64,000 nucleotides of DNA, from the NCBI RefSeq assembly GCF_053078305.1, contig NZ_CP166879.1. The stretch is one strand, 5' to 3'. Within the stretch, counting starts at the first letter, position 1. Each line of letters begins with the position of its first letter. The notes under the pieces are model-generated. The model searched no databases. It was given only the letters and a program-made list of their open reading frames with translations, and was not told where the DNA came from. A program made the translations under genes and the position numbers. Below, in pieces: positions 2,541-55,340 of this stretch.

Positions 2541-3344
2541 TTAACGCTTCAGAGCGTCGCTTAACTCGTCACGCATGTTCGCCAGCATGGCTTTAACAAC
2601 ACGCGGGTTACCAGCAACGATGTTACCGGTCAGCATATAGTTATGACCACCGGTGAAGTCGCTGACGATGCCGCCCGCTTCACGAACCAGCAGCTCGCCT
2701 GCAGCGAAGTCCCACGGGCGCAGACCGATTTCAAAGAAACCGTCAACACGACCCGCAGCGACGTAAGCCAGATCCAGCGCCGCAGAACCGGTACGACGGA
2801 AGTCTGCACATTCGTTGAACAGTTTGCCGACGATGTTGATGTAGGTAGTGGCGTACTGTTTTGCTTTGAACGGGAAGCCGGTCGCCAGAATAGTACCGTC
2901 GAGATCGCGAGCGGTGCTGCCGCGCAGACGGTAGCCGTTCAGCTGTGCGCCCTGACCGCGAGTGGCGGTGAACAGTTCGTTACGCATAGGATCGTATACC
3001 ACAGCAACTTCGGTGCGGCCTTTGATACGAACGGCGATAGATACCGCGAAGTGCGGCAGACGTTTGATAAAGTTGGTAGTGCCATCCAGTGGATCGATAA
3101 CCCATTGAACATCCTGATCAGTACCTTCAAGTTCACCGCTTTCTTCGGTGATGATGGTGTGCTGTGGGTAAGATTTACGAATCGTGTCGATAATCACCGC
3201 TTCGGCAGCTTTATCTACGTTGGTCACGAAATCGTTACTGCCTTTCTGGCTCGCTTCTACAGCGTCCGGGGTTTCATAGTTTTTGGCAATTAAATTACCC
3301 GCCTTGCGCGCTGCGCGCACGGCGATGTTCAGCATCGGATGCAT
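2541..3344 (-). CDS. suhB: inositol monophosphatase SuhB
   Basis: 267-aa ORF, IMPase motifs (WVIDPLDGT), synteny. Confidence 0.9.
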   Translation of the reverse strand: MHPMLNIAVRAARKAGNLIAKNYETPDAVEASQKGSNDFVTNVDKAAEAVIIDTIRKSYPQHTIITEESGELEGTDQDVQWVIDPLDGTTNFIKRLPHFAVSIAVRIKGRTEVAVVYDPMRNELFTATRGQGAQLNGYRLRGSTARDLDGTILATGFPFKAKQYATTYINIVGKLFNECADFRRTGSAALDLAYVAAGRVDGFFEIGLRPWDFAAGELLVREAGGIVSDFTGGHNYMLTGNIVAGNPRVVKAMLANMRDELSDALKR

Positions 3345-3462: not shown

Positions 3463-4203
3463 ATGCTGCAAAATATTCGAATTGTGCTGGTGGAGACGTC
3501 ACACACCGGCAATATGGGTTCTGTTGCCCGTGCCATGAAAACAATGGGATTAACCAATCTGTGGCTGGTTAATCCACTGGTGAAACCTGACTCCCAGGCT
3601 ATTGCCCTGGCGGCGGGGGCCAGCGATGTGATTGGTAATGCTCACATCGTCGATACGCTCGACGAAGCGTTAGCCGGTTGTAGCCTGGTGGTGGGCACCA
3701 GCGCACGTTCCCGCACGCTGCCGTGGCCGATGCTCGACCCGCGCGAATGCGGTCTGAAAAGCGTCGCTGAAGCGGCAAATACCCCGGTGGCGCTGGTCTT
3801 TGGTCGCGAGCGCGTCGGCTTGACCAATGAAGAGTTGCAGAAATGCCATTATCATGTCGCGATTGCGGCAAACCCGGAATACAGTTCGCTGAACCTGGCA
3901 ATGGCGGTTCAGGTTATTGCCTATGAAGTGCGTATGGCCTGGCTGGCAACTCAGGAAAATGGCGAGCAGGTCGAGCATGAAGAGACGCCGTATCCGCTGG
4001 TCGATGATCTGGAGCGTTTTTATGGTCATCTGGAACAAACGCTGCTGGCAACCGGTTTTATCCGTGAAAACCATCCGGGGCAGGTGATGAATAAATTGCG
4101 CCGTCTGTTTACCCGTGCGCGCCCGGAAAGCCAGGAATTGAATATCCTGCGCGGGATTCTGGCTTCTATAGAGCAGCAGAATAAAGGTAATAAGGCCGAA
4201 TAA
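3463..4203 (+). CDS. trmJ: tRNA (cytidine/uridine-2'-O)-methyltransferase TrmJ
   Basis: 246-aa SPOUT-family ORF divergent from suhB. Confidence 0.9.
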
Positions 4204-4211
4204 CAGTGGTT

Positions 4212-4297
4212 GCCTGATGCGATGCTTAACGCGTCTTATCAGGCCTACAGTGAACAGAACCGTAGGTCGGATAAGGTGTTCACACCGCATCCGACAA
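4212..4297. repeat. REP/BIME palindromic elements downstream of trmJ
   Basis: GCCTGATGCGATGCTTAACGCGTCTTATCAGGCCTAC and GTAGGTCGGATAAGGTGTTCACACCGCATCCGACAA match REP consensus. Confidence 0.6.
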
Positions 4298-4337
4298 CAG
4301 GTACAAACGCCACGATAAAAAAATGGCACTGAAGGTT

Positions 4338-4403
4338 AAATACCCGACTAAATCAGTCAAGTAAATAGTTGACCAATTTACTCGGGAATGTCAGACTTGA
4401 CCC
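4338..4403 (+). promoter_or_regulatory. iscR promoter region with IscR type-1-like operator sequences
   Basis: AAATACCCGACTAAATCAGTCAAGTAAAT and following AT-rich repeat upstream of iscR; known autoregulation of isc operon. Confidence 0.45.
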
Positions 4404-4472
4404 TGCTATGCAATACCCCCACTTTTACAATAAAAAACCCCGGGCAGGGGCGAGTTTGAGGTGAAGTAAGAC

Positions 4473-4961
4473 ATGAGACTGACATCTAAAGGGCGCTATG
4501 CCGTGACCGCAATGCTTGACGTTGCGCTCAACTCTGAAGCGGGCCCGGTACCGTTGGCTGATATTTCCGAACGTCAGGGAATTTCCCTTTCTTATCTGGA
4601 ACAACTGTTTTCCCGTCTGCGTAAAAATGGTCTGGTTTCCAGCGTACGTGGACCAGGCGGTGGTTATCTGTTAGGCAAAGATGCCAGCAGCATCGCCGTT
4701 GGCGAAGTGATTAGCGCCGTTGACGAATCTGTAGATGCTACCCGTTGTCAGGGTAAAGGCGGTTGCCAGGGCGGCGATAAATGCCTGACCCACGCGCTGT
4801 GGCGTGATTTGAGCGACCGTCTCACCGGTTTTCTCAACAACATTACTTTAGGCGAACTGGTTAATAACCAGGAAGTGCTGGATGTGTCTGGTCGTCAGCA
4901 TACTCACGACGCGCCACGCACCCGCACACAAGACGCGATCGACGTTAAGTTACGCGCTTAA
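4473..4961 (+). CDS. iscR: Fe-S cluster assembly transcriptional regulator IscR
   Basis: 162-aa Rrf2-family ORF, first gene of isc operon. Confidence 0.95.
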
Positions 4962-5072
4962 TAAAAAGAATTCAGAATCAGGCCGGAGTGCTAAATACTC
5001 CGTAAACACGGTCGTACATCCAGCCGGTAGCCTGATTCCTTGCATTGAGTGATGTACGGAGTTTATAGAGCA

Positions 5073-6287
5073 ATGAAATTACCGATTTATCTCGACTACT
5101 CCGCAACCACGCCGGTGGACCCGCGTGTTGCCGAGAAAATGATGCAGTTTATGACGATGGACGGAACCTTTGGTAACCCGGCCTCCCGTTCTCACCGTTT
5201 CGGCTGGCAGGCTGAAGAAGCGGTAGATATCGCCCGTAATCAGATTGCCGATCTGGTCGGCGCTGATCCGCGTGAAATCGTCTTTACCTCTGGTGCAACC
5301 GAATCTGACAACCTGGCGATCAAAGGTGCAGCCAACTTTTATCAGAAAAAAGGCAAGCACATCATCACCAGCAAAACCGAACACAAAGCGGTACTGGATA
5401 CCTGCCGTCAGCTGGAGCGCGAAGGTTTCGAAGTCACCTACCTGGCACCGCAGCGTAACGGTATTATCGACCTGAAAGAACTCGAAGCGGCGATGCGTGA
5501 CGACACCATCCTCGTTTCTATCATGCACGTGAATAACGAAATCGGCGTGGTACAGGATATTGCGGCTATCGGCGAAATGTGCCGTGCTCGTGGCATTATC
5601 TATCACGTTGATGCAACCCAGAGCGTGGGCAAACTGCCTATCGACCTGAGCCAGTTGAAAGTTGACCTGATGTCTTTCTCCGGTCACAAAATCTATGGCC
5701 CGAAAGGTATCGGTGCGCTGTATGTGCGTCGTAAACCGCGCGTACGCATCGAAGCGCAAATGCACGGCGGCGGTCACGAACGCGGTATGCGTTCCGGCAC
5801 TCTGCCTGTTCACCAGATCGTCGGAATGGGCGAAGCCTATCGCATCGCAAAAGAAGAGATGGCGACCGAGATGGAACGTCTGCGCGGCCTGCGTAACCGT
5901 CTGTGGAACGGCATCAAAGATATCGAAGAAGTTTACCTGAACGGTGACCTGGAACACGGTGCGCCGAACATTCTCAACGTCAGCTTCAACTACGTTGAAG
6001 GTGAGTCGCTGATTATGGCGCTGAAAGACCTCGCGGTTTCTTCCGGTTCCGCCTGTACGTCAGCAAGCCTCGAACCGTCCTACGTGCTGCGCGCGCTGGG
6101 GCTGAACGACGAGCTGGCACATAGCTCTATCCGTTTCTCTTTAGGTCGTTTTACTACTGAAGAAGAGATCGACTACACCATCGAGTTAGTTCGTAAATCC
6201 ATCGGTCGTCTGCGTGACCTTTCTCCGCTGTGGGAAATGTACAAGCAGGGCGTGGATCTGAACAGCATCGAATGGGCTCATCATTAA
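5073..6287 (+). CDS. iscS: cysteine desulfurase IscS
   Basis: ORF track 5049..6287; recognised start [16 protein letters not shown] at 5073 with GGAG upstream; 404 aa. Confidence 0.95.
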
Positions 6288-6314
6288 TCGGTATCGGAAT
6301 CAGGAGAATTTATA

Positions 6315-6701
6315 ATGGCTTACAGCGAAAAAGTTATCGACCATTACGAGAATCCGCGTAACGTGGGTTCCTTTGACAACAACGACGAGAACGTCGGCAG
6401 CGGCATGGTGGGTGCACCGGCCTGTGGCGACGTGATGAAGTTGCAGATTAAAGTCAACGATGAAGGTATCATTGAAGACGCGCGTTTTAAAACTTACGGC
6501 TGCGGTTCCGCTATCGCTTCCAGCTCCCTGGTCACCGAATGGGTGAAAGGGAAGTCTCTCGACGAAGCGCAGGCGATCAAAAACACCGATATTGCTGAAG
6601 AACTTGAACTGCCGCCGGTGAAAATTCACTGTTCTATTCTGGCAGAAGACGCGATCAAAGCCGCCATTGCGGACTATAAAAGCAAACGTGAAGCAAAATA
6701 A
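6315..6701 (+). CDS. iscU: Fe-S cluster scaffold IscU
   Basis: 128-aa ORF MAYSEKVIDHYENPRNVG. Confidence 0.95.
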   Translation: MAYSEKVIDHYENPRNVGSFDNNDENVGSGMVGAPACGDVMKLQIKVNDEGIIEDARFKTYGCGSAIASSSLVTEWVKGKSLDEAQAIKNTDIAEELELPPVKIHCSILAEDAIKAAIADYKSKREAK

Positions 6702-6717
6702 GAGTTGAGGTTTGGTT

Positions 6718-7041
6718 ATGTCGATTACACTGAGCGACAGTGCAGCAGCGCGAGTAAATACCTTTCTGGCTAACCGCGGCAAAGGGTTTGGCCTGCGTCT
6801 GGGCGTGAGAACCTCCGGATGTTCAGGTATGGCTTATGTACTGGAATTTGTTGACGAACCGACGCCGGAAGACATCGTGTTTGAAGACAAAGGCGTGAAA
6901 GTCGTGGTCGATGGCAAAAGCCTGCAATTTCTGGACGGTACGCAGCTGGACTTCGTAAAAGAAGGCCTGAACGAAGGGTTTAAATTCACCAACCCGAACG
7001 TTAAAGATGAGTGTGGTTGCGGCGAAAGCTTCCACGTTTGA
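6718..7041 (+). CDS. iscA: Fe-S cluster insertion protein IscA
   Basis: ORF track starts at TTG 6712; ATG at 6718 gives [13 protein letters not shown], 107 aa. Confidence 0.9.
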
Positions 7042-7136
7042 TGCGCATACCGATAACCCCACCGTGGTCGCCTGCGCGTGGGGTTTGTTTTACCTGATTC
7101 GCCGTTATCGCGGCGGATCGCAGCCCTGAGAATGTT

Positions 7137-7652
7137 ATGGATTACTTCACCCTCTTTGGCTTGCCTGCCCGTTATCAACTCGATACCCAGGCGCTGAGCC
7201 TGCGTTTTCAGGATCTACAACGTCAGTATCATCCTGATAAATTCGCCAGCGGAAGCCAGGCGGAACAACTCGCCGCCGTACAGCAATCTGCAACCATTAA
7301 CCAGGCCTGGCAAACGCTGCGTCATCCGTTAATGCGCGCGGAATATTTGCTTTCTTTGCACGGCTTTGATCTCGCCAGCGAGCAGCATACTGTGCGCGAC
7401 ACCGCGTTCCTGATGGAACAGTTGGAGCTGCGCGAAGAGCTGGACGAGATCGAACAGGCGAAAGATGAAGCGCGGCTGGAAAGCTTTATCAAACGTGTGA
7501 AAAAGATGTTTGATACCCGCCATCAGTTGATGGTTGAACAGTTAGACAACGAGACCTGGGACGCGGCGGCGGATACCGTGCGTAAGCTGCGTTTTCTCGA
7601 TAAACTGCGAAGCAGTGCCGAACAACTCGAAGAAAAACTGCTCGATTTTTAA
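7137..7652 (+). CDS. hscB: co-chaperone HscB
   Basis: 171-aa J-domain ORF. Confidence 0.9.
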
Positions 7653-7668
7653 TTTCTGGAAGCTAAAC

Positions 7669-9519
7669 ATGGCCTTATTACAAATTAGTGAACCTGGTTT
7701 GAGTGCTGCGCCGCATCAGCGTCGTCTGGCGGCCGGTATTGACCTGGGCACAACCAACTCGCTGGTGGCGACAGTGCGCAGCGGTCAGGCCGAAACGTTA
7801 GCCGACCATGAAGGCCGTCACCTGCTGCCATCTGTTGTTCACTATCAACAGCAAGGGCATTCGGTGGGTTATGACGCGCGTACTAATGCAGCGCTCGATA
7901 CCGCCAACACAATTAGTTCTGTTAAACGCCTGATGGGACGCTCGCTGGCTGATATCCAGCAACGCTATCCGCATCTGCCTTATCAATTCCAGGCCAGCGA
8001 AAACGGCCTGCCGATGATTGAAACGGCGGCGGGGCTGCTGAACCCGGTGCGCGTTTCTGCGGACATCCTCAAAGCACTGGCGGCGCGGGCAACTGAAGCC
8101 CTGGCAGGCGAGCTGGATGGTGTAGTTATCACCGTTCCGGCGTACTTTGACGATGCCCAGCGTCAGGGCACCAAAGACGCGGCGCGTCTGGCGGGCCTTC
8201 ACGTCCTGCGCTTACTTAACGAACCGACCGCTGCGGCTATCGCCTACGGGCTGGATTCCGGTCAGGAAGGCGTGATCGCCGTTTATGACCTCGGTGGCGG
8301 GACGTTTGATATTTCCATTCTGCGCTTAAGTCGCGGCGTGTTTGAAGTGCTGGCAACCGGCGGTGATTCCGCGCTCGGCGGCGATGATTTCGACCATCTG
8401 CTGGCGGATTACATTCGCGAGCAGGCGGGCATTCCTGATCGTAGCGATAACCGCGTTCAGCGTGAACTGCTGGATGCCGCCATTGCAGCCAAAATCGCGC
8501 TGAGCGATGCGGACTCCGTGACCGTTAACGTTGCGGGCTGGCAGGGCGAAATCAGCCGTGAACAATTCAATGAACTGATCGCGCCACTGGTAAAACGAAC
8601 CTTACTGGCCTGTCGTCGCGCGCTGAAAGATGCGGGTGTTGAGGCTGACGAAGTACTGGAAGTGGTGATGGTGGGCGGTTCTACTCGCGTGCCGCTGGTG
8701 CGTGAACGGGTAGGCGAATTTTTCGGTCGTCCACCGCTGACTTCCATCGACCCGGATAAAGTCGTCGCTATTGGCGCGGCGATTCAGGCGGATATTCTGG
8801 TGGGTAACAAGCCAGACAGCGAAATGCTGTTGCTTGATGTGATCCCACTGTCGCTGGGCCTCGAAACGATGGGCGGCCTGGTGGAGAAAGTGATTCCGCG
8901 TAATACCACTATTCCGGTGGCCCGCGCTCAGGATTTCACCACCTTTAAAGATGGTCAGACGGCGATGTCTATCCATGTAATGCAGGGTGAGCGCGAACTG
9001 GTGCAGGACTGCCGCTCACTGGCGCGTTTTGCGCTGCGTGGTATTCCGGCGCTACCGGCTGGCGGTGCGCATATTCGCGTGACGTTCCAGGTCGATGCCG
9101 ACGGTCTTTTGAGCGTGACGGCGATGGAGAAATCCACCGGCGTTGAGGCGTCTATTCAGGTCAAACCGTCTTACGGTCTGACCGATAGCGAAATCGCTTC
9201 GATGATCAAAGACTCAATGAGCTATGCCGAGCAGGACGTAAAAGCCCGAATGCTGGCAGAACAAAAAGTAGAAGCGGCGCGTGTGCTGGAAAGTCTGCAC
9301 GGCGCGCTGGCTGCTGATGCCGCGCTGTTAAGCGCCGCAGAACGTCAGGTCATTGACGATGCTGCCGCTCACCTGAGTGAAGTGGCGCAGGGCGATGATG
9401 TTGACGCCATCGAACAAGCGATTAAAAACGTAGACAAACAAACCCAGGATTTCGCCGCTCGCCGCATGGACCAGTCGGTTCGTCGTGCGCTGAAAGGCCA
9501 TTCCGTGGACGAGGTTTAA
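7669..9519 (+). CDS. hscA: Fe-S cluster chaperone HscA (Hsp70 family)
   Basis: ORF track 7615..9519; recognised start [10 protein letters not shown] at 7669; 616 aa. Confidence 0.95.
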
Positions 9520-9520
9520 T

Positions 9521-9856
9521 ATGCCAAAGATTGTTATTTTGCCTCATCAGGATCTCTGCCCTGATGGCGCTGTTCTGGAAGCTAATAGCGGTGAAACCAT
9601 TCTCGACGCAGCGCTGCGTAACGGTATCGAGATTGAACACGCCTGTGAAAAATCCTGTGCTTGCACCACCTGCCACTGCATCGTTCGTGAAGGTTTTGAC
9701 TCACTGCCGGAAAGCTCAGAGCAGGAAGACGACATGCTGGACAAAGCCTGGGGACTGGAGCCGGAAAGCCGTTTAAGCTGCCAGGCGCGCGTCACCGACG
9801 AAGATTTAGTGGTCGAAATCCCGCGTTACACTATCAACCATGCGCGTGAGCATTAA
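9521..9856 (+). CDS. fdx: [2Fe-2S] ferredoxin Fdx
   Basis: 111-aa ORF with adrenodoxin-type Cys motif. Confidence 0.9.
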
Positions 9857-9867
9857 CAGAGGTTAGT

Positions 9868-10068
9868 ATGGGACTTAAGTGGACTGATAGCCGCGAAATT
9901 GGCGAAGCACTGTACGATGCGTATCCCGATCTTGATCCGAAAACGGTTCGATTCACCGATATGCATCAGTGGATTTGCGATCTGGAAGATTTCGACGACG
10001 ACCCGCAGGCATCCAACGAGAAAATCCTCGAAGCGATTTTGTTAGTCTGGCTGGACGAAGCCGAGTAA
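9868..10068 (+). CDS. iscX: Fe-S assembly protein IscX
   Basis: 66-aa acidic ORF at end of isc operon. Confidence 0.85.
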
Positions 10069-11543: not shown

Positions 11544-12329
11544 GTGGTTCTTATGTCCGAAACAAAAAATGAACTTGAAGACCTGCTGGAAAAAGCAGCA
11601 ACCGAACCGGCGCACCGCCCGGCCTTTTTCCGTACTCTACTGGAATCCACCGTCTGGGTGCCTGGTACGGCGGCGCAGGGCGAGGCTGTGGTTGAAGATA
11701 GCGCGCTTGATTTACAGCACTGGGAAAAAGAAGACGGCACCAGCGTCATTCCTTTTTTTACCTCGTTAGAAGCACTTCAACAGGCGGTTGAAGACGAACA
11801 GGCATTTGTCGTAATGCCCGTTCGCACATTGTTTGAGATGACCCTTGGCGAAACGCTCTTCCTTAATGCCAAACTGCCGACCGGTAAAGAATTTATGCCG
11901 CGTGAAATCAGTTTGTTGATTGGTGAAGAGGGAAATCCGCTGAGCAGCCAGGAAATCCTGGAAGGCGGTGAATCGCTGATATTATCGGAAGTCGCAGAGC
12001 CGCCAGCACAAATGATTGATTCACTCACCACCTTATTTAAAACCATTAAGCCTGTGAAGCGTGCTTTTATTTGTTCAATTAAAGAGAACGAAGAGGCACA
12101 GCCTAATTTACTTATTGGCATTGAAGCCGATGGTGATATCGAAGAAATTATTCAGGTGGCGGGAAGTGTAGCGACCGATACATTACCTGGCGATGAACCA
12201 ATCGATATTTGTCAGGTGAAAAAAGGGGAAAAAGGAATTAGCCACTTTATTACCGAACATATTGCGCCATTCTATGAACGTCGCTGGGGTGGTTTTTTGC
12301 GTGACTTTAAACAGAATCGGATAATCTAA
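11544..12329 (+). CDS. sseB: serine sensitivity enhancing protein SseB
   Basis: 261-aa ORF; synteny; alternative start at 11553 (MSETKNE). Confidence 0.8.
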   Translation: MVLMSETKNELEDLLEKAATEPAHRPAFFRTLLESTVWVPGTAAQGEAVVEDSALDLQHWEKEDGTSVIPFFTSLEALQQAVEDEQAFVVMPVRTLFEMTLGETLFLNAKLPTGKEFMPREISLLIGEEGNPLSSQEILEGGESLILSEVAEPPAQMIDSLTTLFKTIKPVKRAFICSIKENEEAQPNLLIGIEADGDIEEIIQVAGSVATDTLPGDEPIDICQVKKGEKGISHFITEHIAPFYERRWGGFLRDFKQNRII

Positions 12330-12646
12330 AATATGCCGCCCCAAAGGGCGGCATTCGGGCTTACCTGCTGCTCTGAAGGTTGTTAATCACCAGTAAATTG
12401 TTACCGGAGAGACTCCGGTTATTATTTACCTCGGTTAACAGCGCACCAGAAACAATAAGTACGATACAAAAGCACCGTATCTTCATTGTGCGGTCCATGC
12501 GAAGACCGCATCACGACAGCACCACTGGCGATATTGCCGCGATAGCAAGCGCTGTGAAACACCTGCATTTACGGCCACGGAACATCCTTTCCTAAAGCCA
12601 GCGCCCGTTTGCGAGACGGCGGAAAGGGCCGGTGTCGATAATACGC
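12330..12646 (-). ncRNA. ryfA: ryfA-like RNA copy 1 (candidate small-protein mRNA, TimP/RyfA family)
   Basis: location between sseB and sseA; minus-strand terminator hairpin at 12332-12353; conserved internal hairpins; predicted length ~300 nt; 5' end inferred. Confidence 0.45.
12361..12498 (-). CDS. 45-codon small hydrophobic ORF inside ryfA-like copy 1 (MDRTMKIRCFCIVLIVSGALLTEVNNNRSLSGNNLLVINNLQSSR), candidate small membrane toxin
   Basis: hand-translated minus strand; conserved in copy 2 with 2 synonymous and 2 conservative changes; not in ORF track (below size cutoff). Confidence 0.4.
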   Translation of the reverse strand: MDRTMKIRCFCIVLIVSGALLTEVNNNRSLSGNNLLVINNLQSSR

Positions 12647-12709: not shown

Positions 12710-12812
12710 GCTGTGAAGCACCTGCGTTGCTCATGCAACACAAGTCAATCTGCTGGAGAGGCCGCGAACCAAACCGGCAACAAATAACCGCCTGATTTTG
12801 GCGGTTTTTTGT
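12710..12812 (+). ncRNA. candidate short plus-strand sRNA divergent from ryfA-like copy 1
   Basis: TTGACA-N18-AATATT promoter-like sequence at 12675-12704 and hairpin+T6 terminator at 12786-12812; internal hairpin GTTGC-loop-GCAAC conserved in copy 2 with loop change. Confidence 0.3.
12786..12812. terminator. bidirectional rho-independent terminator (copy 1)
   Basis: AACCGCC-TGATTT-GGCGGTT followed by TTTTTT. Confidence 0.55.
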
Positions 12813-12930
12813 TGCTTAAAGAAAGTGAATTTACATGTTTAAGTAATATCTTTTACCGGTTAGTATTTTTAATATTGAGCGGGATTTGTTTATATTTGTC
12901 TGAATTCGGACTAATAAGCCAGGTTATTTT

Positions 12931-13010
12931 ATTACTGACATATTGCGCCATTCTATGAACGTCGCTGGGGTGGTTTTTTGCATCACTTTAAACAGAATCG
13001 GATAATCTAA
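12931..13010 (+). pseudogene. duplicated 3' fragment of sseB carried on repeat unit 2
   Basis: near-identical to sseB codons for ...HIAPFYERRWGGFLRDFKQNRII* but without upstream gene. Confidence 0.55.
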
Positions 13011-13327
13011 AATATGCCGCCCCAAAGGGCGGCATTCGGGCTTACCTGCTGTTCTGAAGGTTGTTGACCACCAGTAAATTGTTGCCGGAGAGACTCCGGT
13101 TATTATTTACCTCGGTTAACAGCGCACCAGAAACAATAAGTACGATACAGAAGCACCGTATCTTCATTGTGCGGTCCATGCGAAGACCGCATCACGACAG
13201 CACCACTGGCGATATTGCCGCGATAGCAAGCACTGTGGGGTGCCTGTATTTACGGTCATGGAACATCCTTTCCTAAAGCCAGCGCCCGTTTGCGAGACGG
13301 CGAAAAGGGCCATTAAGAATAATACTC
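13011..13327 (-). ncRNA. ryfA: ryfA-like RNA copy 2
   Basis: 681-bp offset copy of 12330..12646 with conserved terminator hairpin at 13013-13034. Confidence 0.4.
13042..13179 (-). CDS. 45-codon small hydrophobic ORF, copy 2 (…VVNNLQNSR)
   Basis: same frame and length as 12361..12498; differences F(ttt>ttc) and G(ggt>ggc) synonymous, I>V and S>N conservative. Confidence 0.4.
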   Translation of the reverse strand: MDRTMKIRCFCIVLIVSGALLTEVNNNRSLSGNNLLVVNNLQNSR

Positions 13328-29875: not shown

Positions 29876-30994
29876 ATGCATAACCAGGCTCCAATTCAAC
29901 GTAGAAAATCAACACGTATTTACGTTGGGAATGTGCCGATTGGCGATGGTGCTCCCATCGCCGTACAGTCCATGACCAATACGCGTACGACAGATGTCGA
30001 AGCAACGGTCAATCAAATCAAGGCGCTGGAACGCGTTGGCGCTGATATCGTCCGTGTCTCCGTACCGACGATGGACGCGGCAGAAGCGTTCAAACTCATC
30101 AAACAGCAGGTTAACGTGCCGCTGGTGGCTGACATCCACTTCGACTATCGCATTGCGCTGAAAGTAGCGGAATACGGTGTCGATTGTCTGCGTATTAACC
30201 CTGGCAATATCGGTAATGAAGAGCGTATTCGCATGGTGGTTGACTGTGCGCGCGATAAAAACATTCCGATCCGTATTGGCGTTAACGCCGGATCGCTGGA
30301 AAAAGATCTGCAAGAAAAGTATGGCGAACCGACGCCGCAGGCGTTGCTGGAATCCGCCATGCGCCATGTTGATCATCTCGATCGCCTGAACTTCGATCAG
30401 TTCAAAGTCAGCGTGAAAGCGTCTGACGTCTTCCTCGCTGTTGAGTCTTATCGTTTGCTGGCAAAACAAATCGATCAGCCGCTGCATCTGGGGATCACCG
30501 AAGCGGGTGGCGCGCGCAGCGGGGCAGTAAAATCCGCCATTGGTTTAGGTCTGCTGCTGTCTGAAGGCATCGGCGACACGCTGCGCGTATCACTGGCGGC
30601 CGATCCGGTCGAAGAGATCAAAGTCGGTTTCGATATTTTGAAATCGCTTCGTATCCGTTCGCGAGGTATCAACTTCATCGCCTGTCCGACCTGTTCGCGT
30701 CAGGAATTTGATGTTATCGGTACAGTTAACGCGCTGGAGCAACGCCTGGAAGATATCATCACTCCGATGGACGTTTCGATTATTGGCTGCGTGGTGAATG
30801 GCCCGGGTGAGGCGCTGGTATCTACACTCGGCGTCACCGGCGGCAACAAGAAAAGCGGTCTCTATGAAGATGGCGTGCGCAAAGACCGTCTGGACAACAA
30901 CGATATGATCGACCAGCTGGAGGCACGCATTCGTGCGAAAGCCAGTCAGCTGGACGAAGCGCGTCGAATTGACGTTCAGCAGGTTGAAAAATAA
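29876..30994 (+). CDS. ispG: HMBPP synthase IspG
   Basis: 372-aa [26 protein letters not shown]. Confidence 0.95.
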
Positions 30995-31104
30995 TAACGT
31001 GATGGGAAGCGCCTCGCTTCCCGTGTATGATTGAACCCGCATGGCTCCCGAAACATTGAGGGAAGCGTTGAGGGTTCATTTTTATATTCAGAAAGAGAAT
31101 AAAC

Positions 31105-55294: not shown

Positions 55295-55311
55295 AGAATA
55301 AAAATAATTAA

Positions 55312-55340
55312 AGCCGACTTTAAGAGTCGGCTTTTTTTTG
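55312..55340 (+). terminator. hairpin between upp and uraA (attenuator/terminator)
   Basis: AGCCGACT-TTAAG-AGTCGGCT followed by T8. Confidence 0.55.

Follow-up and report, generated by a model that had tools for sequence, protein, structure and literature searches.

Two abutting Type-1 IscR sites as the operator of the iscR promoter in an Escherichia coli chromosome segment

Do the short repeats that precede iscR form an operator through which IscR controls its own operon, and where do the individual sites begin and end? The original prediction held that two consecutive strings in this region resemble the tandem Type-1 IscR sites that autoregulate the isc operon. Both strings are present as written, at 4338–4366 and 4364–4403, overlapping by 3 bases and spanning 4338–4403. 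Our analysis of the window (the whole 64-kb stretch of DNA that was analysed) indicates that positions 4340–4389 are almost certainly an operator that represses the iscR promoter and is built from a pair of adjoining Type-1 IscR sites, A and B, each 25 bp long. The basis computed here comprises identity with the K-12 promoter, matches to the motif, a site B that overlaps the core promoter, conservation throughout the Gammaproteobacteria and an intact iscR gene. Binding, cluster dependence and repression at both sites would follow from the published work on the same sequence. The features of the locus are presented in Table 1.

Table 1. Features of the iscR operator locus, with positions in the window
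Feature	Position	Strand	Description
suhB	2541–3344	−	Gene around the operator locus
trmJ	3463–4203		Confirmed; upstream neighbour of iscR
IscR Type-1 site A, ATACCCGACTAAATCAGTCAAGTAA	4340–4364	+	24/25 to the consensus; −65 to −41 relative to the putative +1
IscR Type-1 site B, ATAGTTGACCAATTTACTCGGGAAT	4365–4389	+	22/25 to the consensus; −40 to −16 relative to the putative +1
−35 hexamer, TTGACC	4369–4374	+	Read from the sequence; inside site B
Putative extended −10: TG, one base, CAGACT	4389–4390 (TG), 4392–4397 (CAGACT)	+	Placed by spacing and cross-species composition
'Site C' candidate (third IscR site of the literature)	4393–4417	+	Weak; uncertain assignment; left half-site AGACTTGACC only
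Putative transcription start, G	~4405 (± ~2 nt)	+	Placed from the −10 position; 68 nt before the iscR ATG
iscR	4473–4961	+	NCBIfam IscR equivalog, 344.7 bits against a cutoff of 275
'iscR stability element'	4962–5071	+	iscR–iscS intergenic; Rfam RF01517, 138.1 bits against a gathering score of 40
iscS, iscU, iscA, hscB, hscA, fdx, iscX	5076–10068	+	Body of the repressed operon

The window is a segment of the E. coli chromosome, as named from the surrounding genes. Downstream of iscR, the order is iscS, iscU, iscA, hscB, hscA, fdx and iscX, followed by pepB, and all seven genes from iscS to iscX exceed the cutoffs of their respective NCBIfam equivalog models. Sites A and B are located 84–133 nt 5' of iscR. 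The encoded IscR is identical to the protein in PDB 4HF1 save for the engineered C92A, C98A and C104A substitutions of the latter; the cluster ligands Cys92, Cys98, Cys104 and His107 and the discriminator Glu43 are therefore intact. Since iscR encodes the regulator for the binding sites in its own promoter, the autoregulatory loop is closed within the locus. The iscR stability element has been described as a RyhB-dependent post-transcriptional layer of the isc operon (PMC8593673). Elsewhere in the window, Rfam matches include two full-length copies of the ryfA RNA on the minus strand (12328–12632, 320.6 bits; 13009–13313, 323.1 bits), an IS128 RNA match between the two copies (12768–12977), and the sroE small RNA on the plus strand at 30994–31085 (RF00371, 116.6 bits).

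The operator proved to be the same, base for base, as that of E. coli K-12. Through alignment with NC_000913.3, the comparison that the original prediction had proposed, positions 4290–4480 were found to be 100% identical to the iscR promoter of K-12 MG1655; the abutting arrangement of the sites, the downstream operon and IscR itself are also shared, and no difference occurs within the operator. The two loci differ upstream, where the trmJ–iscR spacer carries one REP/BIME unit of ~97 bp with nested inverted repeats (4204–4300), whereas the spacer of K-12 MG1655 carries three tandem copies. The copy number of this unit between trmJ and iscR appears to vary among strains. A 371-bp query spanning the spacer matched 5,425 of 5,426 complete E. 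coli genomes, in features annotated as trmJ and iscR, and at least 80% of the query was covered in only 3,988 of those 5,425. The 91-bp core (4330–4420) was found as a single copy in 5,424 of the 5,426 genomes, with at least 99% identity in 5,342.

The motif evidence within the window is concentrated on the same 50 bases. The published Type-1 consensus is ATASYYGACTRWWWYAGTCRRSTAT (PMC6599224, PMC3899308). Both strands of the 64 kb were scanned with it, allowing up to 3 mismatches, and the only two matches were 4340–4364 (1 mismatch) and 4365–4389 (3 mismatches), a result with some circularity because the consensus was derived partly from sites A and B themselves. The predicted tandem pair was thus recovered as the only consensus matches of the window, and 100 dinucleotide-preserving shuffles of the window gave zero matches. 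The two 25-mers adjoin exactly, with no gap between them, and site A contains a perfect GACT-N5-AGTC dyad. A 25-mer across the A/B junction was also considered as a site and was rejected, its equivalent in E. albertii having 10 mismatches to the consensus. The weight-matrix scan that had been suggested as a check was performed with a matrix built on 94 species from outside the clade of Escherichia, Citrobacter and Enterobacter, whose training sites were chosen by means of the Type-1 consensus, and sites A and B took ranks 1–3 of the 127,952 positions. Site B ranked first with 36.3 bits, followed by site A with 34.4 bits on the minus strand and 24.9 bits on the plus strand. The top match away from the isc promoter scored 9.2 bits. 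It is found at 55310–55334 (AAAGCCGACTTTAAGAGTCGGCTTT), a near-perfect hairpin with A/T flanks whose appearance suggests a bidirectional terminator and not an IscR site.

The extent of the second predicted string required correction. Its segment 4365–4389 is site B, but its last 14 bases, GTCAGACTTGACCC (4390–4403), fall outside both 25-bp sites; this tail is the putative −10 hexamer and start-site region, not a Type-1 repeat, and holds at most a weak and poorly conserved half-site. Site B spans the −35 hexamer and the entire 17-bp spacer between −35 and −10, ending at the extended −10 element TG-n-CAGACT. A generic sigma-70 scan of 4150–4550 reported no promoter, as the −10 hexamer CAGACT matches at only 3 of 6 positions, and the −10 and +1 assignments are therefore positions that we infer. 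The site numbering of Giel et al. (2006/2013) reportedly runs from −65 to −41 and from −40 to −16, and the putative +1 reproduces these values.

The relation between the proximal site and the core promoter is also found in other species. TTGAC occupies site positions 5–9 in 84 of the 102 promoter-proximal sites of other species. Beyond the proximal site, positions 4, 6 and 8 are A (79/102), A (73/102) and T (83/102), respectively, giving an xAxAxT −10 pattern that begins 2 nt beyond the site, at a fixed distance across the 102 species. Overall, a geometry of site and core promoter like the present one is observed in 84–93 of the 102 species. In an alignment of 14 Enterobacterales, CAGACTT is kept in most members.

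These tallies derive from a broader survey, in which contigs representing one genome per species were searched with a degenerate nucleotide pattern encoding the N-terminus of IscR. The pattern yielded 120 iscR loci, nearly all of them from Gammaproteobacteria; the 114 loci with 300 nt upstream were scored, and 2,233 control windows were taken from the same loci. A Type-1 site with at most 5 mismatches was found 5' of iscR in 102 of the 114 other species, against 8 of the 2,233 control windows. Abutting pairs of 25-mers (summed mismatches of at most 14) occurred at 60 of the 114 loci and in none of the 2,233 controls. Additionally, a consensus-free analysis of the 7-mers overrepresented 5' of iscR in 113 non-Escherichia species returned ATAGTTG, TAGTTGA, GACTAAA and AAATAGT at the top, all of which fall on 4346–4352 and 4363–4373 in the window.

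The non-coding columns that are invariant among the 14 aligned Enterobacterales track both sites together with the −35 and −10 elements. They comprise AATA, GA, T and A in site A and CA and TT in the −10 region. In site B they comprise TAAATAGTTGAC, A, TC and GAATG, a conservation confounded with that of the −35 hexamer inside this site. Site B is near-constant across the Enterobacterales while site A varies in two flavours, as seen when window positions 4340–4364 were compared with seven further loci (L017, L074, L082, L071, L052, L062 and L089). One flavour, ATACCYGACTAAAnYAGTCAAGTAA, is present in Escherichia, Citrobacter and some Enterobacter, and the other, ATA(C/G)TTGAGTAAATTACTAGGTTAA, in Yersinia, Photorhabdus, Arsenophonus, Klebsiella sp. 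BIGb0407 and Enterobacter sp. Ag1.

Several structural features were observed in the iscR 5' UTR. A GC hairpin, CCCC-GGGCA-GGGG, lies at 4438–4450, just upstream of the ribosome-binding site. The fold of 4405–4490 is no more stable than that of shuffled sequences (z = +1.16) and contains only this 4-bp hairpin; given this value, we make no claim of a leader structure. The segment of ~35–40 nt that carries the hairpin is found in 9 of the 14 Enterobacterales (Escherichia, Citrobacter, Superficieibacter, and Enterobacter/Klebsiella isolates), Superficieibacter having a compensatory variant, GCCC...GGGC, and it is missing from the other 5 (Yersinia, Photorhabdus, Arsenophonus and Acerihabitans). 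Read on the minus strand, the hairpin is terminator-like and is followed by a T-run. Furthermore, a 16-nt inverted repeat of 81% complementarity joins the −10/start region (4391–4406) to the stretch just 5' of the ribosome-binding site (4444–4459). It is probably a chance occurrence, the upstream arm being almost entirely untranscribed from PiscR.

Other readings of the conserved block were weighed against two Type-1 sites. The block could be a mere core promoter with an AT-rich upstream element, its likeness to IscR sites being a by-product of the TTGAC of the −35 hexamer. The frequent presence of TTGAC inside site B (the 84 of 102 species above) and the AT-rich flanks of both sites fit this reading, but site A lies wholly 5' of the −35 hexamer, with its perfect dyad and 24 of 25 consensus positions, and the conservation of site B reaches into its right half, ACTCGGGAAT, a stretch that plays no part in the promoter. 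Moreover, it has been published that holo-IscR binds a site B oligonucleotide and that PiscR-lacZ is repressed in an IscR-dependent manner (PMC12594620), and we consider the explanation very improbable. The sites could also be Type-2 IscR sites, or sites of another Rrf2-family regulator such as NsrR, in which case binding would occur without [2Fe-2S] on IscR and Fe-S status would not be read out through holo-IscR. IscR is a member of the Rrf2 family, in which related dyads with AT flanks are recognised, and the NsrR and CymR models also match the IscR protein of the window, weakly. However, the Type-2 consensus AWARCCCYTSnGTTTGMnGKKKTKWA gave 0 matches at up to 3 mismatches over the whole window on both strands, whereas the Type-1 consensus matches both sites, and this assignment is hardly credible.

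A further reading keeps sites A and B and adds a third tandem Type-1 unit, in which the tail GTCAGACTTGACCC would begin a site C at about 4393–4417 (−12 to +13) and would strengthen repression by preventing the open complex from forming or RNA polymerase from escaping the promoter. The decamer AGACTTGACC (4393–4402, −12 to −3) does resemble a left half-site, scoring 5.1 bits at rank 71 of 127,980, and ACTTGAC is a 7-mer enriched 52-fold upstream of iscR in other species. Against this, the full 25-mer 4393–4417 scores −19.7 bits (rank 1,537), within the background range, and its 11 mismatches to the Type-1 consensus are the number to be expected of random 300-nt windows. The GAC of the half-site was found only in E. 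coli among the relatives compared, being replaced by GAT in E. albertii, GCC in Citrobacter, GCG in Enterobacter and GGC in Superficieibacter, while the flanking CAGACTTG and CTGCTATGCAA stay conserved in those genera. As a full third tandem repeat the tail is unsupported, given the −19.7 bits and a GAC that is not conserved in sister genera. We regard the three-unit arrangement as possible, although we lean against it. More speculative, and in our view improbable, is the proposal that AGACTTGACC is a functional third IscR contact providing a lineage-specific tightening of isc autorepression and that, separately, the number of REP/BIME units alters the read-through from trmJ into isc between strains. 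Neither the half-site nor the REP/BIME idea affects the identity of sites A and B.

The two-site operator is in accordance with published binding data on the identical K-12 sequence. The Type-1 30-mer 'iscRB' used by the Kiley lab (PMC12594620) is AAATAGTTGACCATTTTACTCGGGAATGTC, and 29 of its 30 bases equal window positions 4363–4392. The sole mismatch is at 4376, where the paper has T (CCATTTTAC) and the genome has A (CCAATTTAC); the window agrees with K-12 MG1655 at this position, and both bases fit the W of the Type-1 consensus. Either the T is a printing error in the paper or it was chosen on purpose. The T version occurs naturally in Enterobacter sp. Ag1 and BIGb0383. On the iscRB 30-mer, reduced [2Fe-2S]1+-IscR bound with an apparent Kd of 22 nM and the oxidised form with >1000 nM, and PiscR-lacZ was repressed 32-fold with holo-IscR and not at all with IscR(C92A) (PMC12594620). 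Type-1 sites are described as bound by holo-IscR only and as always repressive (PMC8593673; PMC8561392). With iscR directly downstream and a promoter identical to that of K-12, the predicted autoregulation of the isc operon would hold for this locus by analogy with these data.

A comparable operator has been described in Pseudomonas aeruginosa PAO1, whose iscR promoter also contains two abutting 25-bp Type-1 sites, footprinted at −67 to −43 (A) and −42 to −18 (B) (PMC6599224, PMC3899308). In both organisms, the −35 element lies in the proximal site, holo-IscR is needed and the isc operon is repressed (PMC6599224, PMC3899308). Site B of PAO1, ATAGTTGACCTAATTACTCGGATAA, nearly equals that of E. 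coli, ATAGTTGACCAATTTACTCGGGAAT. The distal sites differ. In PAO1, site A is weak (68% consensus match) and becomes occupied after site B only, in a stepwise or cooperative manner; in E. coli, by contrast, site A matches the consensus better than site B does (24/25), and A and B have been reported to be bound independently (PMC6599224). The Type-2 sites of the hyaA and sufA promoters are bound by the same protein, are also ~25 bp long with AT-rich flanks, and may overlap the −35 element (PMC8593673). They differ from Type-1 sites in their consensus, in being bound by apo- as well as holo-IscR, and in their ability to activate or repress.

Taken together, these features suggest how the operator may work. 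One [2Fe-2S]-IscR dimer would bind each site, and two holo-IscR dimers would cover −65 to −16. Occupancy of site B would mask the −35 hexamer and the whole 17-bp spacer, with site A immediately upstream, and RNA polymerase would therefore be kept off the iscR promoter when the sites are filled. Because site B shares bases with the −35 hexamer and with the spacer, we infer steric occlusion as the physical mechanism. With clusters plentiful, holo-IscR would repress iscRSUA-hscBA-fdx-iscX and so exert negative feedback on the synthesis of Fe-S clusters. Depletion or oxidation of the cluster, whether through demand, oxygen or redox-cycling agents, would release IscR from the Type-1 sites and derepress the operon. 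The isc loop would thus act as a homeostat, because IscR receives its cluster from the Isc machinery encoded by the same operon.

The operator is already known in full, and the present analysis adds no new biology to it; it does show that a real operator could be recognised from the sequence alone by a first-stage reader. The cross-species tallies show a rigid promoter-operator architecture at iscR throughout the Gammaproteobacteria. In E. coli, the operator represents the link from sensor to promoter by which Fe-S cluster synthesis is matched to demand, and it is a textbook case of a DNA specificity changed by a cofactor.
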